Origin: Promethearchaeota archaeon
GTDB lineage: Archaea > Asgardarchaeota > Lokiarchaeia > Sigyniarchaeales > SOKP01
NCBI GenBank assembly: GCA_030606485.1
Contig: JAUWGH010000005.1
Coordinates: 10,129 to 74,128 of the forward strand
Length of the DNA stretch: 64,000 nt
Direction of reading: 5' to 3'
The translations under genes were made by a program, and so were the position numbers. The notes beneath the pieces were generated by a model. That model saw only the letters and a program-made list of their open reading frames with translations, was not told where the DNA came from and did not search any database. Shown one piece after another: positions 1 through 39,120 of the stretch (within the stretch, counting starts at the first letter, position 1; every line of letters starts with the position of its first letter).

Positions 1-213
1 ATGATCCATGTGAATTTCAAATTTATGAGGAATATCGTCAGAATCATTTTTGCTTTTAATTAATTGCCAAATCTCTTGTTTAACCTTAGTGCTTTCGGTA
101 TTTAAATAATTCAACCCTTTTTCTTGCATAACAACCGCAGCAAGAACGAAAACTTTATTATTTACATCTTTAGGATCTGGAGTTCCCGATTCATCAATAT
201 AAGCAAAATACAT
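1..213 (-). CDS. DUF3800-like protein, N-terminal 71 codons (gene continues beyond left edge)
   Basis: Own translation. ATG at 213..211 (minus) opens a frame still open at base 1: MYFAYIDESGTPDPKDVNNKVFVLAAVVMQEKG... The N-terminal YIDESG followed by a hydrophobic strand matches my memory of the DUF3800 signature. Confidence 0.45.
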   Translation of the reverse strand, partial: MYFAYIDESGTPDPKDVNNKVFVLAAVVMQEKGLNYLNTESTKVKQEIWQLIKSKNDSDDIPHKFEIHMDH

Positions 214-677
214 AAGAATAAATCAATATTTTTAATATTTGATGTACTGATAAGGATACTATTATTAATTATCAATTAACAAATAAATTCCTTATGATTT
301 TGATGACATTCCAAATATAATAATAAACGATCTTAAATTTCTAATTAAGCTAAATATAAGTTTAAAGTCACAAGAGAATTTTGCTTACAAAATCAAATTG
401 AAGGAATAACTTGGTTTAACGGAATTATAGAAGTTTTAATACATTTAGTTAAAGAAAAAATGACTGAGCCAAACACTACAACCTATAAAAGAGACTGCAA
501 AGATCGAATCTATTAGAAGATATAGAAGGTTGTCTTAACAAATTTTTTCCAATTATAAGCCTCAAAAAAGTAATCCGAAAAGTAAAGGCTGATCAAGAGA
601 TAAGGCACTATATGATGAAATTAAAAGTAGCTAGCAATTATATATAATCTTAATTTTATAGAGATATTGAAGAAATT

Positions 678-1517
678 ATGAGTGAAAAAAATCTAGAATT
701 AGCAAAAAAAATTTTACAGCAAGATGTTAGTGCTAGTATTCATTTTTTTGAGAAAAACGATTTCATCTCAATGAATATTGCTGCTAATCGATATTTAGAG
801 AATTGCATAATATTTGATGATTATAGATTATGTCTTTCGGGTGTTTTTATTAAAGATATGGCTAATGATTATATTGGTATAATTAAACACCCTGATAAAT
901 CAAAGAAAATCAATTCAGCTAAAGCAATTGGAAAAATCTTTATCTCAAAGATTAAAGAATATTTTAAAGATTTGAAAGAAGAAAAATTATGGGAAGAATT
1001 TCACAAATATAATCTTAACATTAATGATTTTTTACGAGACGAAATGGATGCCCATTATCGTCGAAATCTTTCATTTTCATCTCAATCTTTCAAATTCTTA
1101 TTAAATTATCTTAAAAATAATATCAGTTATTTATATGTAATTAATAATAGATTTCTTGAAGGTATTAGTTCTATTATGGTTAGAGTTATTAGAAATCATT
1201 CATTTACCATAAATGAATTGAAGATTTACTTATATATTAAATTTCTCGATTTATTATATCAATACCTTTATTATGAAAATTTTAAGAATGATAGTTTAGA
1301 TATTGAGAATATAAAAAAGGAATTACCTATATATCTTGAATATATTAAATCAATAAATGAAGAAAAGGATATTGATGTTATCAATTTTGATAAAAGTTTG
1401 TGGCAAATAGTAAAAAAATGGAGAGAAATGTATATTTTTTATAGAAATATTCCAAGACAAACTAAAGAAGTATTAATTCCTGTAGAAATGAAGAAAGATA
1501 AAAAAAATGAACAATAA
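678..1517 (+). CDS. hypothetical protein, first gene of a three-gene cassette
   Basis: 279-aa ORF with a helical-looking K/N/Y/I/L-rich sequence and a 19-nt gap to the next ORF. No family recognised. Confidence 0.6.
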   Translation: MSEKNLELAKKILQQDVSASIHFFEKNDFISMNIAANRYLENCIIFDDYRLCLSGVFIKDMANDYIGIIKHPDKSKKINSAKAIGKIFISKIKEYFKDLKEEKLWEEFHKYNLNINDFLRDEMDAHYRRNLSFSSQSFKFLLNYLKNNISYLYVINNRFLEGISSIMVRVIRNHSFTINELKIYLYIKFLDLLYQYLYYENFKNDSLDIENIKKELPIYLEYIKSINEEKDIDVINFDKSLWQIVKKWREMYIFYRNIPRQTKEVLIPVEMKKDKKNEQ

Positions 1518-1536
1518 TAATTAATAAATAAAAAAA

Positions 1537-2115
1537 ATGAGCGATAATATTTTTTATCAGGATGCATCATCAGATATAAACGCTGAAGTAATATTACCAA
1601 ATAAATCAAATTTTAATGAAATTCAAAGTACTTCAGCAATTTCTATAACTAAGGATGTTTCAATTATAAAAAATGATGATTCATCTTCTCAAAAAGTTGT
1701 AATTATCGATTCTGACGACTCCCTAAAATTTAAAGAATCATTGATATTGAAATATGCACCTAAAATCTCGTTTGATAAGGATATTAAAGAAGAAATGTAT
1801 CGAAATATTTCATTTAGGAAATTCATTAGTGAAATAGAAAATGGATTGTTTATATTCACAGAAATGCATAATATTTCGTTTGATGCAAAAATTTATTTTC
1901 AACAAGATTGGGAAGTTAAGGATTTAAAAACTATAATTCTTAAAATAAAGTTTCATAACATTCAATTTGAGGCGGAGTTATGGTTATGGGAAGAACTTTC
2001 TCACTTTATAAGAAAAATGTCGAAAATGGCTAAATTTTATGTTAATTCTAAAGAAGAAATTATAGATTTTGAGAATTATAATAAATTATTTTATATTGAA
2101 GTTGATTTAACATAG
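1537..2115 (+). CDS. hypothetical protein, second gene of cassette
   Basis: 192-aa ORF. The N-terminal third is S/D/N-rich and low-complexity, followed by a compact domain (WEVKDLKTIILKIKFHNIQFEAELWLWEEL). Stop TAG 2113-2115 directly abuts the GTG of the next ORF. No GS...DxD nucleotidyltransferase motif seen. Confidence 0.6.
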   Translation: MSDNIFYQDASSDINAEVILPNKSNFNEIQSTSAISITKDVSIIKNDDSSSQKVVIIDSDDSLKFKESLILKYAPKISFDKDIKEEMYRNISFRKFISEIENGLFIFTEMHNISFDAKIYFQQDWEVKDLKTIILKIKFHNIQFEAELWLWEELSHFIRKMSKMAKFYVNSKEEIIDFENYNKLFYIEVDLT

Positions 2116-2508
2116 GTGATATCTTTAACTAACAGCTTTAATCCAGAAATTTTTCTAGATATTGCAAAAAAATTGTTAAACATAACAAAATTAGATGAAA
2201 AAGGAAGATTTAGAACATCTATAAGTAGAGCTTATTATTCAGCTTTTCTATTAACTAGAACGAGATTAGAAAGGAAAGGAATAAATTTTGGAACGGAGGC
2301 TCAGCACAAAGAAGTTAGAGAATACTTAAAAACGATTCACATGGATTATATGGCAGATCAATTGAAAACATTAGCGAATTGTAGAGTAGATGCAGATTAT
2401 TATCTTGTTGATTCAATTAATAAATCAGTTAACAGATCACTCTGCAATAAATGTATCAAAATTGCGGAAACGATTATCGGAAAAATAGAAGATATAAGAA
2501 TTAAATAA
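2116..2508 (+). CDS. HEPN-like small helical protein, third gene of cassette
   Basis: 130 aa. The SRAYYSAFLLTRTRLERKG helix, QHKEVREYL and C-proximal CRVDADYY resemble HEPN-type four-helix proteins. GTG start abuts the upstream stop. Confidence 0.45.
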   Translation: MISLTNSFNPEIFLDIAKKLLNITKLDEKGRFRTSISRAYYSAFLLTRTRLERKGINFGTEAQHKEVREYLKTIHMDYMADQLKTLANCRVDADYYLVDSINKSVNRSLCNKCIKIAETIIGKIEDIRIK

Positions 2509-2671
2509 TAAATTATTAAAATGTTAAAACGTAGTTTATGCGTTTTTATACTATTTTCTTAATAAATCATTGAATTTTTAGATTTTTTACTTATTTCTAT
2601 AAGTTGCAGTTATTTTTCTAAATTATAATTTTCAAAAAGATTTTATTTATTTTATATGAATTAACCGATGA

Positions 2672-2983
2672 ATTGAAAGAAAAAAACAGAAAACCACTGC
2701 GAGAAAAACATCTCCTCAGCATATTCCTAAATTTATAATACAAGCACCCCCCGATGGCATTCCTTATACATTTTCTAATAAGAAAGTTGAAATTGCTGTT
2801 ACAAAAATAATCCATGGAATGGCAGTTACGAATAGAGGAGCGCTTAGAAACCCAGAATCTTTAGATTTCCACGAAAAAATGAGAGAACAACTTCAAAACA
2901 GGTATCTTTTTCTATTTTTTTATTTACTTTCTATAAATAAAAATAGTAATTATATTGATTTTATTCAGATTTTAATTTCTTAA
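2672..2983 (+). pseudogene. open frame without canonical start, possible gene relic
   Basis: Own translation. The frame is open from the TGA at 2669-2671 to TAA 2981-2983: (I)ERKKQKTTARKTSPQHIPKFIIQAPPDGIPYTFSNKKVEIAVTKIIHGMAVTNRGALRNPESLDFHEKMREQLQNRY... It has no ATG/GTG/TTG in the first half. The central 2690-2890 is visibly GC-richer than its flanks, and the tail runs into AT-rich spacer and the 3' end of the 2961..3452 gene. Confidence 0.2.
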
Positions 2984-3452
2984 CTAAATTAATTGCAATC
3001 ATTATTATTCTATCGCTTAAATAGGGTTTTTCTGTTTTCGTGAATTTAATTAAATCATCATCCAATAATTTAGGGTTATTATCTTTGAAGTATAAAATCG
3101 TTGAAATTGCTTGTAGTAAATCGGTTTTATATTTGAAATAAATGGGATGTAAAAAGATATTTTCTCGTATCTTATCCAAGATTTTGGTTTCATATTCTGT
3201 AAGCTTCATGTTTGTTTTTAAAGACATAATTAACTCTGGATTATTGTAATAATCATCAGTTAATTGAGGACAATATGGTCCTTTCTTATAAAGTCCAAAA
3301 TTATATTTCATTTTAACTCCTAGTGATTGAGATATAAAAGTTATTTTTTGAATCATAAGTCTATCTCTAAAATTCTCATCGAATGTAGGATTATTCAAAT
3401 GAAGTTTTAAATATTTAAAAATAGGAATAAGTTTTTCATAATCATTTACCAT
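2961..3452 (-). CDS. Panacea/SocA-like (DUF4065-like) protein
   Basis: 163 aa. RLMIQKITFISQSLGVKMKYNFGLYKKGPYCPQLTDDYY fits the DUF4065 pattern (LQK-hh-Y/F ... F..w..GP..p.ly). It lies 6 nt downstream of a wHTH gene. Confidence 0.4.
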   Translation of the reverse strand: MVNDYEKLIPIFKYLKLHLNNPTFDENFRDRLMIQKITFISQSLGVKMKYNFGLYKKGPYCPQLTDDYYNNPELIMSLKTNMKLTEYETKILDKIRENIFLHPIYFKYKTDLLQAISTILYFKDNNPKLLDDDLIKFTKTEKPYLSDRIIMIAINLVKKLKSE

Positions 3453-3458
3453 TTTTTT

Positions 3459-3794
3459 TTAATCCACCATTTCTTTTAAAAAATCTATCCATTCAATAAT
3501 TTTCTTCAAATTATTTTTTCCCAATTCATTAATCATAAAAATATGTAGCCTTTTTTGGTCAAGTTCAACTTTTATCTTTTTTATATATCCCATTTCAAGT
3601 AAAAAATCAAGATTTGACTGCAATTTTCCATCAGATATGTTTACAAATGTTTTTAATTCCCTAAATTGGAGTCCATCTTTATAAAAGCTGATAAGAAATA
3701 GAAGAATACATCTTGTTAAGTTAAATGCCTTAGAATTTATTTTTTTTGAATTTTCAATTAGACTTTCGATGATATTATCTGAAACAATATTCAT
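3459..3794 (-). CDS. winged-helix transcriptional regulator (MarR/ArsR-like)
   Basis: 111 aa. LTRCILLFLISFYKDGLQFRELKTFVNISDGKLQSNLDFLLEMGYIKK is a typical wHTH recognition-helix/wing pattern. Confidence 0.55.
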   Translation of the reverse strand: MNIVSDNIIESLIENSKKINSKAFNLTRCILLFLISFYKDGLQFRELKTFVNISDGKLQSNLDFLLEMGYIKKIKVELDQKRLHIFMINELGKNNLKKIIEWIDFLKEMVD

Positions 3795-3979
3795 ATTTCT
3801 ATATATAATTTAAAATTTAAATTATTTAAACTATTTGTTTAACTTTGAAAACAAAAGTAAAATCCAAAGTTATATGAATAATGATTTTCTATTGTATAAT
3901 AAATATAATTTAAAAATTATATTATTGAATTTTATGAAATTTCTATTATTAAATAAAACCAAATAAAAGGTGAATTTTT

Positions 3980-4273
3980 ATCGGTAAACATCAAAATATA
4001 AAAGCAATAAGAAAGATAGAAAAAAGATTAGGTGCAAAAGAAAGATCTCAAGGTGTTGACTTTGTCGTTGGTGGCAATGCTTATGAATTTGCAGAAACTA
4101 AAGAAGATATTAGATCATCAATTGGACAACTAAATAAGAGTAGAGTTCCTTGCTCGAAAAAATTAATCATCCCAAACAATTTGGATAAATATGCTAGAGA
4201 AGTAACTCAAGGAACTGGAATTGGAATTGAAAATATATCAGGTAAAGTATTAAAAAGATCCAGAAGAAAATAG
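3980..4273 (+). CDS. small PD-(D/E)xK nuclease-like protein with non-canonical start (ATC 3980, or ATT 3974)
   Basis: Not in ORF track. AGGTGA at 3968-3973 is followed after 6 nt by in-frame ATC. The frame is open to TAG 4271-4273: (M)GKHQNIKAIRKIEKRLGAKERSQGVDFVVGGNAYEFAETKEDIRSSIGQL... The order E ... VDFVV ... EFAETK gives a D-x(n)-E-x-K arrangement like Hjc-type mini nucleases. Confidence 0.35.
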   Translation: MGKHQNIKAIRKIEKRLGAKERSQGVDFVVGGNAYEFAETKEDIRSSIGQLNKSRVPCSKKLIIPNNLDKYAREVTQGTGIGIENISGKVLKRSRRK

Positions 4274-4516
4274 CAGTTAAATGTATTGTCTCTATTAGGA
4301 TGAGTATAATAAGGTCTTGTACAAACCCAATTTCTTCAAAATAATTGATGAATATAAATTTAATTATATAAATTTTAGGTTAGTCATTTGAAAGAAATAA
4401 AAAAATTTCTTCAATGTAATTAATTAACTCTGCTTTAGATAATTTTTCTAATTCTTTATTCAACTGCCTTAATCTATTATAAACTTCTTATATGATAAGT
4501 ACAATAATAAAAATTT

Positions 4517-5665
4517 TTAAAAAGATTTGGTGAAATCTTCAATTCTCTCCATAGCGATTTTGAGATTTTTCATAGAAGTAGCATAAGAAATCCTTAATTT
4601 ATCATCGGAAAAGCTTCCAAAAATAGAACCTGGAACTATTGCCACTCCTTTTTCTTCAATAATTTTCTTTGAGAAATCATCTGAAGAAATTTTAAAATTT
4701 GAGATTCCAGGCATTATATAAAAAGCACCTTTCGGCTTCACCACATCAAACCCCATTTCACTTAATCTTTTATAGCAAAATAACCTTCGAGTATTATAAT
4801 CTTTTAAGATTTTTTCAAAGAATTGTATATCCATTTTTAAAGCCGCGATAAAACCGAACTGGGCGGCATGGTTTGTACCAGCGACAGTATATTGTTGATA
4901 TTTTTCCATAAGTTCAATAATATGTGTAGGTGCTGCGACGTACCCCAAACGGATTCCTGTCGCTGAAAATAACTTTGACATGGCATTAAGTGTTATTGTT
5001 CTTTCTTGCATTCCATTTAATGATGCAGGACTAATATGAATTGCATTATCATACAGATAATTTTCATAAACCTCATCGCATATTAGATATAAATCGTTTT
5101 CAATAACAATATCAACAATAGTTTCAATCTCTTTTTTTGTTAAAACATAACCGGTAGGGTTATTGGGAGAATTAATAAGAATCGCTTTTGTTTTATCTGT
5201 AATCTTATCCTTTATATCATCAATATTGGGACTGAAATCTTCCTTTCTCTTGGACTCAATCACTTTAATCCCGTAAAATATGCCACAATAGAAATAAGAA
5301 ATGAAATTAGGCGAACTCAAAATTAATTCATCGCCCGGATTAAATAGAGTAGCAAATGAAAAGGTGATTGCTTGAGATCCACCATTAGTCACAATTACAT
5401 TATCAGGTCCAACATCTAAATTATTTACCCTTTTTAGTTTTTTAGCAATTAATTCGATTAACTCAGGTTGCCCTCGAGTGGGAGCATACATTGTGATTCC
5501 ATCCTCTAATGCTTTTATATTTGCCTTGATAATTGGTTCTGGTGTCCTAAAATCAGGTTGCCCTATTCCCAGACTAATGACATCTTTTCTGCCGGCTGCG
5601 ATGTTAAACAATTCCCGTATCTGAGATCTGGGGGCTAAGTTTACTTTTTTGGATAATTCTTTCAT
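4517..5665 (-). CDS. class I/II pyridoxal-phosphate aminotransferase (aspartate aminotransferase-like)
   Basis: 382 aa. NSPNNPTGYVL and the PLP-lysine motif NAMSKLFSATGIRLGY. Confidence 0.85.
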   Translation of the reverse strand: MKELSKKVNLAPRSQIRELFNIAAGRKDVISLGIGQPDFRTPEPIIKANIKALEDGITMYAPTRGQPELIELIAKKLKRVNNLDVGPDNVIVTNGGSQAITFSFATLFNPGDELILSSPNFISYFYCGIFYGIKVIESKRKEDFSPNIDDIKDKITDKTKAILINSPNNPTGYVLTKKEIETIVDIVIENDLYLICDEVYENYLYDNAIHISPASLNGMQERTITLNAMSKLFSATGIRLGYVAAPTHIIELMEKYQQYTVAGTNHAAQFGFIAALKMDIQFFEKILKDYNTRRLFCYKRLSEMGFDVVKPKGAFYIMPGISNFKISSDDFSKKIIEEKGVAIVPGSIFGSFSDDKLRISYATSMKNLKIAMERIEDFTKSF

Positions 5666-5834
5666 TAAACATCAAAATAATTTTAATTTAATAATCGATT
5701 TTTAAAATCATACAAAAATACACAATCTCAATATAATTTCTCGCTATTAGAGATTATTTTTATAATACAAAAAACGTTTTTTTAAATATTAATTTTCTTA
5801 ACATCTTTTGGAGAATTTAAATTCGAATTTAATT

Positions 5835-7163
5835 TCAAAATGAGATTGTCAGATTAGGAAATGCAATATATGGAAAAAGAGAATTTGAAGAAAACTCAGT
5901 TTCTTTTGAAATGAATTGACAATTTTTTATCATTTCTAAGACATTTCCGCTTACATTTCCACCTTTTATTGGATTCGAGAATCTACCATTTTTAATGAAA
6001 TATCCATTTCTTATTTCAGCTCCAAAAGAACCTGAAAATTCATCTGGTTCTAGCCATGAACATTTTTCAATATAATAACCTTCTTTCACATTTGAAATCA
6101 TTTCCTCTAAAGAAATATCACCTGGCAAAATTTGAAGATTTGTGTTTCCGTTAGTAATTGAACCATTCTCTGTCCTTATGCCATTTCCAGTTGATATTGT
6201 GTCCCCTAAAATCGCATATTTTTGATCAAATAAACGTTTTTTAAAAATTCCATTCTCAATTATTTCGTTTTTCTGTTGAGCGTTTCCTTCTCCGTCCCAA
6301 GCATTTGTTAGTAACCCTCCCTCAAGTAACCCGTTGTCAATAATAGTAAAATTGTCGGATGCAACTTTCTCATTTAAATTAAATTTAGAAACTTTTTCGT
6401 GAAAAGCTTTTCCCAATGCCTGAAAACCAACAACGGGATTAATCGCATCTTTTAAAAGGCTTGGTGAAAAAATAACAAGGGCTTGTTTCTTTGATTTAGG
6501 AGGTTTTGCTTTTAAGTTATCCTTGGAAATTCTAGCCCACTTTTCTACTCGTTTATTAAAATTTAGATGTTCTCTCTCTTTAATATATTCACTTTCCCAA
6601 TATTCAGATAATTTTCCTTTTTCTTGTGTCTTCAAGGAAAATTCAAGGTAAAAAAAAGTTCTTAAATTATCTAAATCTATTCCATTGCTATTATTTAAAA
6701 ATCTTTTTTGGATATGTATTCTAAAACGACCAAAAGTAGGTGTTACATCTTTATATTCATTGATTTCTGTTATTAACTCTTCACAAATCTCTTTTTTGGC
6801 TCTAAGTGGATCTTTTATTAATTTCTGATCGACTGTACTAATCTGCGAAATTGATTTTTTTTCAGGAAAGTTATATTTAGAAGTAGAGTTATTTTTTGCC
6901 AATAATAAACATGTATTTATATATTTCTCAATTTCTTTAGGATCTATCGAATTTCCCTTAACTATCCCAATTCCGGTCTCAATATTTCTCTGAGATAATA
7001 TCCTAATTATATATTCTAAATCATTTATTTCTCTTTCAGATTCAATTTGATTTTTTAAAAATTGCGTTTCATAAATTTGTTGAGAAATAAGATATATTTC
7101 ATATTCCTCAACATTTTTCGATTGAATAGCTTTTCTAATTAATTCTACTTTTTCATTATTCAT
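5835..7163 (-). CDS. pmbA: PmbA/TldE-family metalloprotease modulator
   Basis: 442 aa, directly downstream of tldD on the same strand. C-terminal G-rich PmbA_TldD fold pattern (GNGIRTENGS..., GGNVSGNVLEM). Confidence 0.8.
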   Translation of the reverse strand: MNNEKVELIRKAIQSKNVEEYEIYLISQQIYETQFLKNQIESEREINDLEYIIRILSQRNIETGIGIVKGNSIDPKEIEKYINTCLLLAKNNSTSKYNFPEKKSISQISTVDQKLIKDPLRAKKEICEELITEINEYKDVTPTFGRFRIHIQKRFLNNSNGIDLDNLRTFFYLEFSLKTQEKGKLSEYWESEYIKEREHLNFNKRVEKWARISKDNLKAKPPKSKKQALVIFSPSLLKDAINPVVGFQALGKAFHEKVSKFNLNEKVASDNFTIIDNGLLEGGLLTNAWDGEGNAQQKNEIIENGIFKKRLFDQKYAILGDTISTGNGIRTENGSITNGNTNLQILPGDISLEEMISNVKEGYYIEKCSWLEPDEFSGSFGAEIRNGYFIKNGRFSNPIKGGNVSGNVLEMIKNCQFISKETEFSSNSLFPYIAFPNLTISF

Positions 7164-7170
7164 CTCTTTT

Positions 7171-8571
7171 TCACCCCGGACTAATTAAAGCATTTTTAAC
7201 TCTAATAAAACTACCACCAGTTGTTACCGGAATGAAGTCTTCAACACCTTTCCCACAAGTTCCTCCATGTAAATTTAAATTATCATTACTAATTGCATCA
7301 ATATTTTGTAATAATTCCAAAACTGGACCGCTTAAAGTAATGGATTTAAGTAATTTCGTTCGTTCGCCATTTTCAATCAAATAACCTTTTTTTGATGTAC
7401 ATTGCATCCCTCCTCCTAATGGATCTTCCATTCCAAAATAACCTCGAGTTGGCATTACTCCATATTTAATTTCTGATATCATCTCATCAAGATCATAGTC
7501 TCCTGGCTCAAAATAGGTGTTAGTCATTCTAACATAAACAGGATGAGCAAAAGATTCTCTTCTTCCATTTCCTTTAGGAATACCGTTTAACAATGAAGCG
7601 GTGTGTCTATTGTGTAAAAATCTTTTTAAAATTCCCCCCTCAACTAAAATGTTTTTCCCAGCAGGAATTCCCTCATCATCAAAAAAATAAGATCCCAATT
7701 CATTTTTTAAATTTGGGGAATCACATATTACACATATTTCAGAAGCAACCTTTTTATTTAATTTATCTTTTAAATAACTTCTATCCCTTAAAATCTGATC
7801 CGCTTCCAATCCATGTCCAAAACTCTCATGTGCTATTAAACCAGCCATATCTGGATCTAAAATGATGGGAAATTTTCCTGAAGGAGGAGTATCAGCCTTT
7901 AACATTTCCAAAGAATTTTTAGCTATTTGTTCTAACTTATTATCAAGTATTTCTTCGATTATCTCAAAACCCTTTTCGCCCCCAGTAGAAAAATAATCGA
8001 AATCTATTGTTGATCCTTCTTTTACAACAGGTTGAATAAAAAATCTAATTCTAGGCAACACCTGCCGCAATTGACATCCTTCATTATTGAAAAAAATGCG
8101 TGTCATTAAACTTTCTGAGTAAAAAATTATTGGATTAATAATTCTTTCATCATATTTTCTTAAATAATTGAAAAAATCTCTTATTTTTTGAATTTTTTCT
8201 TCTATGGGAATATCAGAGGGATTAATCTTGGGTTTTATTTCTTTATTTATCTTCCATGCTTCAAATTCATTTATTTCTTCTCCTTTATTGATAACTTTTG
8301 GTAACTTTTTTTCAATATTTTTTAATTCTGAGACATCTTGTGTAGCAAATTCCTTCCAAGACCCTATAAATGTTCGAGCAACAATTCCTGATTTTTTTGC
8401 ATTTATTGAAATTGATTCCTCAGTAAGCGATTTTTTAATCCTCACTGATGATACGGAATCAAATAAAATATCAAAATATTGATTCTCACGTTTAAAACTA
8501 TTAGAAATTTCCTCAAAAATTACAAAAATCTCTTCATTTGATTTATTACTCATAATTAAACCAAAAATCAT
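7171..8571 (-). CDS. tldD: TldD-family zinc metalloprotease
   Basis: 466 aa with the HESFGHGLEAD (HExxxH) motif. The start may be the second Met, 6 codons in. Confidence 0.85.
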   Translation of the reverse strand: MIFGLIMSNKSNEEIFVIFEEISNSFKRENQYFDILFDSVSSVRIKKSLTEESISINAKKSGIVARTFIGSWKEFATQDVSELKNIEKKLPKVINKGEEINEFEAWKINKEIKPKINPSDIPIEEKIQKIRDFFNYLRKYDERIINPIIFYSESLMTRIFFNNEGCQLRQVLPRIRFFIQPVVKEGSTIDFDYFSTGGEKGFEIIEEILDNKLEQIAKNSLEMLKADTPPSGKFPIILDPDMAGLIAHESFGHGLEADQILRDRSYLKDKLNKKVASEICVICDSPNLKNELGSYFFDDEGIPAGKNILVEGGILKRFLHNRHTASLLNGIPKGNGRRESFAHPVYVRMTNTYFEPGDYDLDEMISEIKYGVMPTRGYFGMEDPLGGGMQCTSKKGYLIENGERTKLLKSITLSGPVLELLQNIDAISNDNLNLHGGTCGKGVEDFIPVTTGGSFIRVKNALISPG

Positions 8572-8689: not shown

Positions 8690-9064
8690 TTAATGAATTT
8701 TAGCGCCACATCCTTGGCAAAATTGGGCGCCTCCTTCAAGTTGTTCTCCACAAAATTGACAATATTTCTGTTTTTCAGGTTCTTGAGATACAACAACTTG
8801 ATTTTGAGATTCTTGATTATATTCCACTTCAGTGGTTTGTAGTTGACTAGATTTAATTTGAGGTATATCACCAGGTGATTGTGACGATACAATAGAACCA
8901 CAGTGAATGCACCTATTCTCGCTTTGTGAGTAATAAATCATAAGGTAAATAATTAATCCGATTCCAGCTGTAAAACATAATAAGATTATTGCTAGTAACA
9001 AATTAATATCTTCTCTTGCAAGGAGCACGTTTTGCTTACATTGATTGCAATATCCATAAGTAAT
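8690..9064 (-). CDS. LITAF-like split zinc ribbon / hydrophobic anchor protein with C-terminal zinc ribbon (paralog 3; ATT start proposed)
   Basis: The track ORF starts at GTG 9028, but the frame is open upstream and reads (ATT)TYGYCNQCKQNVLLAREDINL... This aligns with MPYGYCPNCRQNVLLVREDIDW of the neighbour. GAGG at 9076-9073 lies 8 nt before ATT 9064-9062. C-terminus is YCQFCGEQLEGGAQFCQGCGAKI. Confidence 0.6.
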   Translation of the reverse strand: MTYGYCNQCKQNVLLAREDINLLLAIILLCFTAGIGLIIYLMIYYSQSENRCIHCGSIVSSQSPGDIPQIKSSQLQTTEVEYNQESQNQVVVSQEPEKQKYCQFCGEQLEGGAQFCQGCGAKIH

Positions 9065-9120
9065 TTTTAAAGCCTCTTTTCTTCTATTTTTATTTTTTTG
9101 ATTATTTTTATTCTAAAAGA

Positions 9121-9522
9121 TTATATAATTTTTGCACCACAACCAGAACAGAAACGGGCGTTTTCTTCAATTCTCTCGCCACAATACGGGCAATAGCTTG
9201 CTTTTAATTCTTTCTCAGGAGCGATAAATTGATTTTGTGATACTTCATAAATATTTTGTTGACTAGTTTGAACTTCATAGGGTTGAGAAACTTTCTGATA
9301 AGGAGTTTGAACCTCAATAGGCTGAGAATCTTGCTGTAAACCCGGAACTATAGTATAACAGTGCACACATCTATTTTCTGGCTTAGAGTAATAAATTATG
9401 AGGTATATAATTAGTCCACAACCACAAGTGAAACAAATTAGGAAAAATGCCAACATCCAATCAATATCTTCGCGAACAAGAAGCACGTTTTGGCGACAGT
9501 TTGGGCAATATCCATATGGCAT
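9121..9522 (-). CDS. LITAF-like split zinc ribbon / hydrophobic anchor protein with C-terminal zinc ribbon (paralog 2)
   Basis: 133 aa. Layout: CPNC - 13 aa ending W - 23 hydrophobic aa (MLAFFLICFTCGCGLIIYLIIYY) - 6 aa - CVHC, then a Q/P/E/S-rich repeat linker (QPIEVQT / QPYEVQT), then YCPYCGERIEENARFCSGCGAKI. AGGTGT SD lies 8 nt upstream of the ATG. Confidence 0.7.
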   Translation of the reverse strand: MPYGYCPNCRQNVLLVREDIDWMLAFFLICFTCGCGLIIYLIIYYSKPENRCVHCYTIVPGLQQDSQPIEVQTPYQKVSQPYEVQTSQQNIYEVSQNQFIAPEKELKASYCPYCGERIEENARFCSGCGAKII

Positions 9523-9614
9523 TTTTTTCTACACCTAATGTTTTATTTTTAATAACCTTTATTTTTAAAATATCTACTTAGATATTTAAGGGTTCTATAG
9601 ACCAAATATTAATT

Positions 9615-10133
9615 TCAATCTCCTTCATTTAAATCAGCACCACACGAAGAACAGAGTTCTTGTCCCTCATCTGAAATTTTTGAACCACAAAATGGGCAAA
9701 AAGCAATCCTTCTATAAAAAATAACAGCATTTTTAATCTGTGGAATTTCCTGAACCTGTTTAGGTTCTATTAATTTTTCAGTGGTCTCCATCTCTGACTC
9801 TACAGAACCTGTATGGGTCTCTTCAGTGGGAACTGAATACATTTCTTTCGGTAATTCCAAAGTTTTAGTTAAATCTTGACCTGGAGGTATTATCACTACT
9901 ATATTATTACATTTTTTACACCTATTCTTTTTTCTTCTAAAGTATAGATATATCAGCACGGGTGTTGCTAAACCTAATGTAACAATAAGAACTATCGTCC
10001 ATACTAATATTACACTATCTTTAAATGGTTTTCTTTTAATTTCTACATATTTTTTACAAATCGGACAAAAGTTTAACTGATTTTTCGATATCACTGATTT
10101 TTCAATCTCTAATTCTTCTAATTTTATAATCAT
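9615..10133 (-). CDS. LITAF-like split zinc ribbon / hydrophobic anchor protein with C-terminal zinc ribbon (paralog 1)
   Basis: 172 aa. Layout: FCPICKKYVEIKRKPFKDSVILVW - hydrophobic TIVLIVTLGLATPVLIYLYF - RRKKNR - CKKC, then an acidic/T-rich linker, then FCPFCGSKISDEGQELCSSCGADL. Confidence 0.7.
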   Translation of the reverse strand: MIIKLEELEIEKSVISKNQLNFCPICKKYVEIKRKPFKDSVILVWTIVLIVTLGLATPVLIYLYFRRKKNRCKKCNNIVVIIPPGQDLTKTLELPKEMYSVPTEETHTGSVESEMETTEKLIEPKQVQEIPQIKNAVIFYRRIAFCPFCGSKISDEGQELCSSCGADLNEGD

Positions 10134-10140
10134 AAATATT

Positions 10141-11085
10141 TTATTTAACTTTATTTCCCAATTTTTGATTTAATTTTTCATATTCGTCTGGAAAAAATCT
10201 CCGTAATAATCTAATCCAATCAAATCCAATTAACATTGCTCCAGTTATTAATATGAACCACCCAAAGATCCTAATTACTTCAGCTTTAATATGAAAGATA
10301 TGATATGGAAATATATCAACTGGAAAAAAAATGAAAAAAATTCCCATTGATGATAATATTATACCCAAAAAGTAAGTATTTAGAGGTTTTTCAGTATAGA
10401 ACATATTCTTTTTATCATTTATTGTTTCATTATCATCAATACTTGTATTTTTATCAGAATTGAGGGATAAAAATTTAAAATTTATAACATCTTTCCAATC
10501 TCTTCCCACTAAAAAACTCCCGAAATATAAAAGCAGAGTTAGTAATATTATAAAAACGGTTCCAATAATATGAAATTCAGTTATTAATTTTTCTTTAGAA
10601 ATCCAAGTGAGTCTTAATAAAAATAATCCTATCGCTATTAGTATTAAAATTATACCAGCAAATCCTTCATGCACATGATGTCTCCCCTTTATAATATTAC
10701 TTTCAAATTTATGTTGATATTTTGTAATTAGAAATAGTGAATGAACCGAAAAAAAGGGAGCAATGCAACAAACACAAAGTATTATTATAAATCCCCATTG
10801 AAATAGAGTGAGTTTTGAAAAAATTGAGAAATAAACACAAATAACGAAATTATAGATCCAAGCACCAATACTTATGATATTTGAAACAAAAAATAGATAT
10901 TTATATTTCTTATATTTTAAATTTAAGAAGATAATTAAAAAAATCCACCCTACAATAAAAATGAACATACCCTTATATAATTCATTGCCTTGTGGATGTT
11001 GAAAGTAATTCCAGAAGCCAACGCCAATAAAAATAGCAATTAAAATAAAAACTGATAAAATAATAATAGTATATTTTCTATTCAT
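10141..11085 (-). CDS. polytopic membrane protein, unknown function
   Basis: 314 aa with about 8-9 hydrophobic segments. It ends 7 nt before the first zinc-ribbon paralog on the same strand. Confidence 0.65.
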   Translation of the reverse strand: MNRKYTIIILSVFILIAIFIGVGFWNYFQHPQGNELYKGMFIFIVGWIFLIIFLNLKYKKYKYLFFVSNIISIGAWIYNFVICVYFSIFSKLTLFQWGFIIILCVCCIAPFFSVHSLFLITKYQHKFESNIIKGRHHVHEGFAGIILILIAIGLFLLRLTWISKEKLITEFHIIGTVFIILLTLLLYFGSFLVGRDWKDVINFKFLSLNSDKNTSIDDNETINDKKNMFYTEKPLNTYFLGIILSSMGIFFIFFPVDIFPYHIFHIKAEVIRIFGWFILITGAMLIGFDWIRLLRRFFPDEYEKLNQKLGNKVK

Positions 11086-11131
11086 TGATTAATTAAGTTT
11101 AATTACAATCTTATTTATTTTTTACATAATA

Positions 11132-11743
11132 ATGGTCAGAGCGTTTATTGTTTTGGAAGGAATTGACGGAAGCGGAACTACAACCCACTCTCAACTATTA
11201 ACTAAATTTTTAGAAGAAAAGGGATTAAATGTCCACTTAACACAAGAACCATCATCAAGTATAATTGGAGATTTACTAAAAAAGATTTTATTGGATGAAA
11301 ATATTCCTCCTGAAACAGATGCTTTGTTATTTGCTGCTGATAGATACATTCATTATATAAATGAAATTGAGAAAAAACTTGAAAATGGATATATTGTAAT
11401 TTCAGATAGATATCTTGAATCTTCAATTGTGTATCAATCTTCTCAAACAGATCAGATTTCAATTGAATGGATTGAAAATATCAACAAATTCGTTGGAATA
11501 CCAGACATAACTATAATTTTAGATTTACCTCCTAAAGTCTCATTAAAAAGAAAATTATCTCATTTAAAATCTACGGGTAAAAATAAAGAAAAATTTGAAA
11601 ATCTAGACTTTTTAGTAAAAGTACGAAACAGATTTTTAGAGAGGGTAAAGGAGAAAGGATATAAAATCATAAATTCTGAGAATTCTATTGAATTGGTTCA
11701 AAATGAAATTCAAAACTATATAAAAAGCCAATTGAAGTTATGA
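11132..11743 (+). CDS. tmk: thymidylate kinase
   Basis: P-loop LEGIDGSGTTT, with DRY motifs (AADRYIHY, ISDRYLESS). Confidence 0.9.
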   Translation: MVRAFIVLEGIDGSGTTTHSQLLTKFLEEKGLNVHLTQEPSSSIIGDLLKKILLDENIPPETDALLFAADRYIHYINEIEKKLENGYIVISDRYLESSIVYQSSQTDQISIEWIENINKFVGIPDITIILDLPPKVSLKRKLSHLKSTGKNKEKFENLDFLVKVRNRFLERVKEKGYKIINSENSIELVQNEIQNYIKSQLKL

Positions 11744-33743: not shown

Positions 33744-33847
33744 TGGGATGGGAGGGATTCGAACCCCCGACCTCTTGGCCCCCAGCCAAGAATTACGCTG
33801 TAAAGAATAAGTCTTTACAGAATCATACCAAGCTAGACCACCATCCC
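33744..33847 (-). tRNA. tRNA-Pro(GGG) with 30-nt intron at non-canonical position 25/26
   Basis: Minus-strand read: GGGATGG TG GTCT AGCTTGGTA TGAT [tCTGTAAAG ACTTATT CTTTACAG CGTAAT] T CTTGG CTGGGGG CCAAG AGGTC GGGGG TTCGAAT CCCTC CCATCCC A. Anticodon GGG, G37, A73, no encoded CCA. The intron is plus-strand 33792-33821. Confidence 0.75.
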
Positions 33848-39019: not shown

Positions 39020-39111
39020 GGACCCGTCGCGAAGCCCGGATCTCGCACCACCCTCCTAAGATGATCTTCGGGGTAAGGTGGTTTACGGGGGTTCAAATCC
39101 CTCCGGGTCCG
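39020..39111 (+). tRNA. tRNA-Arg(CCU) with 17-nt intron at canonical 37/38
   Basis: GGACCCG TC GCGA AGCCCGGATC TCGC A CCACC CTCCTA [AGATGATCTTCGGGGTA] A GGTGG TTTAC GGGGG TTCAAAT CCCTC CGGGTCC G. Confidence 0.85.
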
Positions 39112-39120
39112 CTAAAAATC

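Follow-up and report, generated by a model that had tools for sequence, protein, structure and literature searches.

What do three tightly packed genes do in a lokiarchaeial genome when only the last of them resembles a known protein? The question is raised by a stretch of 64,000 nucleotides (nt) from a Promethearchaeota archaeon (assembly GCA_030606485.1, contig JAUWGH010000005.1, positions 10,129 to 74,128 of the forward strand), hereafter the window, in which positions 678-2508 are occupied by three consecutive genes that we call P1, P2 and P3. An earlier note on this DNA, made from its letters, had put the trio forward as a candidate for an undescribed defence or toxin-antitoxin (TA) module. 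Our analysis gives a somewhat better than even chance to the reading that the trio encodes a modular conflict system of archaea, of the defence or TA type, that has so far not been described. The earlier picture is also refined: the genes belong to a broad archaeal family, P2 appears to be truncated in the window and P3 fits the AF0298 type of HEPN proteins, and a defence function is suggested by genomic context and modularity.

The three open reading frames (ORFs) lie on one strand and are spaced as the earlier note had described. P1 (678-1517, + strand) encodes 279 amino acids (aa) from an ATG start, P2 (1537-2115, +) encodes 192 aa, likewise from ATG, and P3 (2116-2508, +) encodes 130 aa from GTG. 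P1 and P2 are separated by 19 nt (1518-1536), and between P2 and P3 the gap is 0 nt, the TAG stop at 2113-2115 abutting the GTG at 2116. Ahead of F8 and P10, which are invariant in P3, this GTG is the sole start codon, and at the equivalent position the homologues begin with ATG or GTG (M or V). Because every one of the genes has 20-35 homologue clusters (45-94% identical) and because sizes and spacing recur in every related locus, P1, P2 and P3 are regarded as real genes and not as chance ORFs. Marine-sediment metagenomes, 'LCGC14' records among them, are the source of the nearest homologues. Two signals were read directly from the flanking sequence: a TATA-box-like TTATATATAA (638-647, +), located about 31-40 nt 5' of the P1 ATG, is a candidate archaeal promoter of the operon, and a T-rich tract (TTTTT...TTTT; 2543-2560, +), 35 nt 3' of the P3 stop, is a possible archaeal oligo-T terminator. 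A scan found no hairpin terminator; such scans, like those for sigma-70 promoters, are uninformative for an archaeon. None of the three proteins contains a hydrophobic segment of sufficient length to span a membrane.

The arrangement is not confined to this genome. On the Loki-clade contigs examined, genes of 279-280, 189-192 and 127-130 aa follow each other with like spacing in all cases. Wider scans, for which a sub-alignment of 16 P1 sequences was used, recovered P1 loci from genomes of Nitrososphaerales, Bathyarchaeota, Nitrosopumilus and other Nitrososphaerota, from one metagenome-assembled genome (MAG) labelled Binatia, and from 54 metagenomic contigs. ORFs at all loci were annotated with hidden Markov models (HMMs), and layout statistics were compiled from those unique P1 loci, 41 in number, that are followed by 1.5 kb of sequence or more. 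A P2 homologue and then a HEPN-T gene follow P1 in 32 of these 41 informative loci, and at every P2-P3 junction of these standard loci the two genes overlap or lie no more than 14 nt apart. The order P1, P2, HEPN is found in Asgard archaea, Bathyarchaeota and Nitrososphaerota; the trio is a conserved archaeal operon, present in several phyla and not specific to the Loki clade. A complete P1-P2-HEPN trio is also carried by a viral contig of IMG/VR (L079, UViG_3300034406_000076, 4965-7103). A nearby ORF on that contig (941-1381, - strand) matches a PHROG head-scaffolding family (E 3e-11).

Conserved gene order in several archaeal phyla would also suit a lineage-conserved housekeeping complex of TACK and Asgard archaea, acting in RNA processing or regulation. 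Against this stand the copy on a viral contig and the rarity of the family, since a full HMM search returned only about 200 P1 representatives (202 at 50% clustering) among 1.84 billion. Further evidence that bears on this explanation comes from the neighbourhoods of the trio and is given below.

P3, which had been called HEPN-like in the earlier note, matches the Pfam family PF05168 (HEPN) with a score of 34.2 bits, where the cut-off is 22, and covers profile positions 5-116 of 117. Its orthologues on contigs L017-L020 and L010 score 22.5-30.4 bits against the same family, and the threshold is passed in four distant phyla-level relatives. The P3 family profile aligns over its full length with the solved chains 9xbd and 9xbc, annotated as 'HEPN domain-containing protein' (E 0.002-0.015), in part with a retron HEPN effector, and weakly with AF0298 (2hsb, E 0.36). 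On the strength of these profile matches P3 is assigned to the HEPN superfamily. PADLOC contributes only a weak HEPN_IX match (6e-4), and among the three proteins P3 alone matches a PHROGs family, the function of which is unknown.

The canonical Rx4-6H motif of HEPN proteins is not found in P3, where the region reads R90-V-D-A-D94-Y95 and no His follows within 4-6 residues. The same columns are occupied by Asp in 33 of 33 and by Tyr in 32 of 33 relatives. Across 33 diverse sequences eight residues never vary (R33, R38, Y40, Y41, F44, H64, R90 and D94) and Y95 is present in 32; the candidate active site is plainly under selection. A comparable pattern has been described in the AF0298-type family, in which the motif Arg is kept, Asp usually stands where the His would be, and another His, strongly conserved and located N-terminal to the motif, has been proposed as part of an alternative active site (Anantharaman et al. 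2013, PMC3710099). P3 shares all three features (R90, D94 and H64), fits this AF0298-type 'HEPN-T' subfamily, and its activity as an RNase is plausible.

The same sequence features can be turned towards a different explanation, in which P3 would be a non-catalytic subunit that binds nucleotides or RNA, by analogy with kanamycin nucleotidyltransferase and sacsin, and P1 would be the real enzyme or effector. The missing canonical His favours this explanation, as does the published view that a HEPN domain in which the motif is missing may serve for binding (Anantharaman et al., PMC3710099). However, the polar residues of P3 are invariant, unlike those of degenerate, binding-only HEPN proteins. 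The members of the P1 family are nearly all 280-300 aa long and align over their full length; among 66 members, 18-68% identical to P1 of the window, N37, R38, R169 and R249 are invariant and G55, W105, Y127 and Y196 nearly so. R169 belongs to a conserved motif, G-I-L-N-E-x-x-R169-x4-[H/Y]174-G, in which position 174 is His in 48 and Tyr in 12 of the 66 sequences. These invariant residues, together with the R169-x4-[H/Y]174-G motif, are the features that would speak for an enzymatic P1.

The spacing of R169 and H174 led us to consider P1 as a cryptic HEPN protein, and this was not supported: hhalign gave a probability of 0.2% against the P3 family, and no HEPN-clan Pfam family was found in the 66 members or their consensus, except for a single SWT1_3rd match (E 0.01). 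Since HEPN families diverge widely and confidence in the C-terminal half of the P1 model is low, a hidden HEPN domain retains a small probability. The absence of profile likeness to HEPN or to any Pfam family argues against an enzymatic P1. The search of Pfam, NCBIfam, PADLOC, PHROGs and PDB, by sequence or with Foldseek, returned no match for P1. Foldseek against PDB and a viral library gave generic helical repeats as the best matches, none of them significant, and the profile found only designed helical bundles among PDB sequences; PADLOC, applied to all 66 members, gave scattered single matches with E values of at least 0.001. In the AlphaFold2 model P1 is all-helical, with 11 helices, a mean predicted local distance difference test (pLDDT) score of 68 and an average of about 86 over the N-terminal 120 residues. 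P1 represents a new family of soluble, all-alpha proteins, and we propose for it the role of a sensor or regulatory subunit.

P2, like P1, has no match in Pfam, NCBIfam, PADLOC, PHROGs or PDB, and the earlier note's remark that it recognised neither of the upstream proteins holds for these databases. Residues 1-70 (1537-1746, +) form a disordered Ser/Asp-rich region (pLDDT 25-35 in the AlphaFold2 model), and residues 71-192 with the stop codon (1747-2115, +) correspond to a C-terminal domain, P2C, which is predicted with a pLDDT of about 90. The strands and helices of P2C follow each other in the ferredoxin-like order b-a-b-b-a-b. A loop that reads QQDWE in the window and D-x-E-x-P-E-W in the family is conserved, as is the C-terminal motif N-x-x-F-Y-I-x-x-D-L. 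The best Foldseek match in PDB is OsmC/Ohr-like and not significant (E 0.02, TM about 0.3). The possibility that P2 is a degenerate minimal nucleotidyltransferase (MNT) was rejected in view of the missing Pfam match, the ferredoxin-like order and the absence of any MNT among the top 50 Foldseek matches in PDB. Outside the Loki clade P2 is longer, about 285 aa, and consists of a helical basic N-domain (P2N), an acidic Ser-rich linker and the C-domain. The helical basic N-domain is missing from P2 of the window, which retains the linker, as disordered residues 1-70, and the C-domain; by this comparison it is best described as a shortened form of an ancestral two-domain protein.

The partner of P2C is always the same. 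P2C was seen only adjoining HEPN-T, in the 32 standard loci, on contigs L009 and L014, and on L010-L013. The loci on L009 and L014 are two-gene variants that consist of P2C and HEPN and have no P1; tblastn gave no signal for a remnant of P1 in either of them, nor for a P1 pseudogene in decay within the gap of 850 nt on L009. A distant tight trio of 196, 180 and 140 aa is located on L010 (6857-8423) and also on L011-L013. Its protein of 180 aa is homologous to P2C, though diverged, and that of 140 aa belongs to HEPN-T, but the 196-aa product of the first gene is unrelated to P1. Its neighbours on L010 are a resolvase, an integrase and an MmeI-type restriction-modification gene. In a close relative, P0238 (an ENA contig of 1544 nt), P2 and P3 are fused in frame into one protein of 323 aa (...IDLE-Q-A-ISLTNSF...), the TAG stop being replaced by a Gln codon and the GTG start by an Ala codon; the fusion on this single contig may be genuine or may stem from an error in assembly or sequencing. 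Co-occurrence of P2C and HEPN-T is strict, and judged by this distribution P2C appears to be an obligate partner of HEPN-T; the co-occurrence and the one fusion speak for an interaction between the two proteins. We propose that it is the cognate neutraliser or adaptor of P3.

Tight two-gene units without P1 are also what a plain addiction (TA) module would provide, and here a further alternative has to be considered, namely that the trio stabilises mobile elements or islands and has no antiviral role. On the model of tripartite toxin-antitoxin-chaperone systems, P3 would then act as toxin and P2 as its labile protein antitoxin, with P1 in an accessory role as regulator or chaperone. The disordered region of P2, typical of labile antitoxins, agrees with this, as do the resolvase and integrase genes that flank the trio on L010 and on a further contig, L082, and the copy on a viral contig. 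On the other hand, no DNA-binding domain for autoregulation is detectable with Pfam in P1 or P2. In mechanism the addiction and defence explanations overlap, and sequence data alone do not tell them apart.

The third gene can be exchanged. The N-domain of P2 occurs with P1 even at loci that have no HEPN gene. On L022 the HEPN position is taken by a SIR2_2 gene (6856-7833; 34.6 bits, cut-off 24.5), and on L023 (2802-3434) and L065 (2360-2992) by an HNH endonuclease gene (25.0 and 30.6 bits, cut-off 21.4); in all three cases the middle protein has the N-domain only. This pairing of P1 and P2N with SIR2 and HNH is a pattern more common in sensor-effector defence than in simple TA systems, and we judge an addiction module without antiviral role to be unlikely, though less so than the other two alternatives. 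The exchange also bears on the proposal of an enzymatic P1: bona fide effectors take the position of P3 in sister branches, which speaks for the third gene being the effector slot. A binding-only P3 with P1 as the enzyme seems to us improbable. At thaumarchaeal loci a further conserved gene, of about 140 aa and convergent, comes after P1 and the middle gene, and in some cases there are two (L021 6816-7646, L061 1990-2846, L024 7077-7861, L063 2659-3078 and L067 2333-2779, all on the - strand). Its motifs are CTN..L.K..Y.D, GY.H and A..NLD..F, it has no family assignment, and the outer flanks of these loci are not conserved. Possibly this gene is a fourth kind of partner or effector.

The neighbourhoods of the trio are variable. 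The six Loki-clade contexts all differ from each other, even where P1 is 94% identical, and defence, TA or mobile-element neighbours are present in five of the six. In the window and on contig L001 (coordinates offset by 4971), genes for a DUF3800 protein, a HEPN_RiboL-PSP-like protein and an SLFN/AlbA_2 protein are located upstream and a winged helix-turn-helix (wHTH) pair downstream. DUF4145 and AlbA_2 genes accompany the trio on L080, the contig with the 94% identical P1; an AlbA_2-HATPase-TPR-S1 gene and CARF/Cas02710 on L002; a resolvase and an integrase fragment on L082; and an MNT-HEPN pair and GrpE on L084. The sixth context (L005-L008) contains genes for a ribosomal protein, a CoA ligase, NifU and Arf GTPases. 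At distant loci the flanks include a HerA-like ATPase, a Cas3-like helicase and an AAA_14-DUF4143 gene. The module behaves like a mobile one, apparently often located in islands; the trio is conserved as a unit beyond its source genome, in contexts that differ and are often rich in defence or mobile genes.

These contexts also bear on the housekeeping explanation. It can draw on the single Loki-clade context with ordinary metabolic and ribosomal neighbours and on the thaumarchaeal pairs of P1 and middle gene, which occur without a recognisable effector. However, the flanks are non-syntenic even between close relatives, integrase, resolvase, restriction-modification and defence genes are frequent among the neighbours, the third gene is exchangeable and forms without P1 exist. 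A housekeeping complex is, in our estimate, very improbable and the least probable of the explanations considered.

The immediate neighbours in the window are not part of the conserved module. The DUF3800 gene, the 5' part of which lies at 1-213 (- strand), extends beyond the edge of the window, where the HEPN_RiboL-PSP-like and SLFN/AlbA_2 genes come next; it corresponds to 4363-5184 (-) on L001 and matches PF12686. On the other side a pair of genes converges on the trio (- strand): a 163-aa ORF at 2961-3452 and, at 3459-3794, a 111-aa winged-helix protein of the HTH_34 family. The pair is absent from the other trio loci; for the 163-aa ORF nothing beyond a weak match of DarG-like type was obtained (PADLOC, E 3.8e-4), and the two genes are possibly a separate TA-like pair. 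Where the earlier note had named the neighbours, Pfam bears out DUF3800 and the wHTH protein; its Panacea-like label for the 163-aa ORF found no Pfam support (no Panacea/DUF4065 match), and its mini nuclease-like ORF is unsupported. SLFN/AlbA_2 genes of three architectures occur, at a distance of 1-3 genes from the trio, in half of the six contexts of the Loki clade (L001 2052-3230, L080 7515-8861 and L002 11009-13258), which may reflect co-residence in islands or a functional link.

Several further observations concern the sequences around the module. The GC content of the operon, 24.0%, is in the lowest 3% of windows of equal size, and that of the entire window is 29%. Positions 1-4400 have a GC content of 24.2%, compared with 29.7% in the rest of the window, and the GC content at third codon positions (GC3) of their genes is not distinctive. 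Two over-long tRNA genes are present elsewhere in the window, one of 104 nt (33744-33847, -), found by Rfam only, and one of 93 nt (39020-39112, +), found by ARAGORN only and assigned to tRNA-Arg CCT; their lengths imply archaeal introns. Related loci are rich in genes for Arf/Ras-type GTPases and LRR proteins. In a Loki-related MAG, contig L009 carries, near the two-gene P2C-HEPN variant, a gene for a 787-aa protein of eukaryotic-signature type (8873-11236, -) with E3_UFM1_ligase, DDRGK, PCI and VPS28-like Pfam matches. Such genes and the provenance of the nearest homologues suggest that the DNA stems from a Lokiarchaeia-like Asgard archaeon.

How does the trio relate to systems that are already known? 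The nearest architectural analogue is HEPN-MNT, the type VII TA system represented by Shewanella HepT-MntA, Aphanizomenon HEPN-MNT and the PADLOC candidate PDC-M05. In both cases a small HEPN gene lies directly downstream of a small cognate partner and is translationally coupled to it, fusions occur occasionally, and the systems are abundant in archaea and apparently patchy and mobile. Unlike HEPN-MNT, the trio has a third gene, P1, its HEPN protein is of the AF0298 type and not of the DUF86 Rx4H type, and its partner protein has neither the GS...DxD motif nor a PF01909 match (NTP_transf_2/Polbeta; P1, P2 and the family consensus). That no nucleotidyltransferase partner is recognisable had been stated in the earlier note; P1 and P2 indeed have no such match in Pfam, NCBIfam or PADLOC, and no MNT appears among their Foldseek matches. 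The trio is not a HEPN-MNT system, and since its partner is not a nucleotidyltransferase, neutralisation by AMPylation would not be expected.

Other comparisons lead to similar partial likenesses. Known AF0298-type proteins are standalone, fused or linked to MNT, or located in restriction-modification clusters, and a linkage to P1 or P2 is not described (PMC3710099). AbiV, the HEPN protein of a lactococcal abortive-infection system resembling type III TA, is inhibited by an RNA, whereas the partner in the trio is a conserved protein domain; the lactococcal motif is RNHKSKH, P3 has no AbiV match in Pfam or PADLOC, and AbiV has no equivalent of P1. Lamassu, Avs/AVAST, CBASS and short pAgo systems resemble the trio in that a conserved core, here P1 and P2N, is combined with alternative effectors, here HEPN, SIR2 and HNH. 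Unlike in those systems, the core has no NTPase, SMC, cyclase or Argonaute domain, and the exchange of effectors is seen in few lineages only. No system model in PADLOC-DB v2.0.0 was matched by P1 or P2, and no description of the module was found in the open-access literature searched (tripartite HEPN, archaeal HEPN/SIR2/HNH, UPF0332, AF0298, 9xbd). The trio would be a conflict module built on HEPN, the partner proteins of which are new and the effector of which is exchanged in a modular way; all its functional steps are inferred. The earlier proposal of an undescribed defence or TA module is supported, and none of the findings that it had named beforehand as speaking against it was encountered: P3 is placed among HEPN proteins, no housekeeping family was matched by any of the three genes, and the trio occurs together outside this genome.

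If the trio is indeed a conflict system, its parts could act together as follows. P3 would be the effector, a small HEPN-T protein that is predicted to dimerise and to cleave RNA through a non-canonical site formed by R90, D94, Y95 and H64. P2C would bind P3 and either hold it inactive or adapt it to the rest of the system, stop-start coupling would give a fixed ratio of P2 to P3 synthesis, and regulation or lability could reside in the disordered acidic, Ser-rich region of P2. The soluble, helical P1, in which three Arg residues are invariant, would be the upstream sensor or regulator that decides on the release of P3. A trigger such as infection or the loss of a mobile element would then lead to RNA degradation and growth arrest, with a presumably antiviral outcome.

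Several points weigh against a conflict system. First, P3 has no canonical His and could be a binding domain, and to our knowledge RNase activity has never been demonstrated for the AF0298-type family, the active site of which is a prediction. Second, the roles suggested for P1 and P2 are derived from position and co-occurrence, with no homologue of known function and no significant Foldseek match, and the P1 model is of moderate confidence only. Third, P2 of the window is without the N-domain that elsewhere accompanies P1, which leaves the coupling of P1 and P2 unexplained here. Fourth, the exchange of effectors is seen in few lineages: SIR2 is found at one locus, and the two HNH loci (P1 73% identical) are one lineage sampled twice. 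Finally, the genes of the operon have the same GC3 as host genes, and the L005-L008 context has no obvious defence or mobile neighbours.

A more far-reaching interpretation is that P1 and P2 define a new, archaea-centred immune family, in which P1 would be a new class of infection sensors of unknown fold and two-domain P2 an adaptor. P2N would dock P1, P2C would be specific for the effector (in most lineages a HEPN-T RNase, in others SIR2 or HNH), and the form in the window would be a streamlined derivative. We put this forward tentatively, as having less than an even chance. If it is true, it would be a native archaeal addition to a defence repertoire that is known mostly from bacteria, and it would provide the first functional context and the first regulatory partner for HEPN proteins of the AF0298 type. 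If the trio is an addiction module only, it would still represent a new class of protein antitoxins for HEPN toxins. In either case the module is a concrete and testable candidate, consisting of three small soluble proteins, two of them of unknown fold, in Asgard archaea, Bathyarchaeota and Nitrososphaerota. Its two layers of modularity, P1 with P2N and P2C with HEPN, make it a simple system in which the coupling between effector and sensor may be studied.

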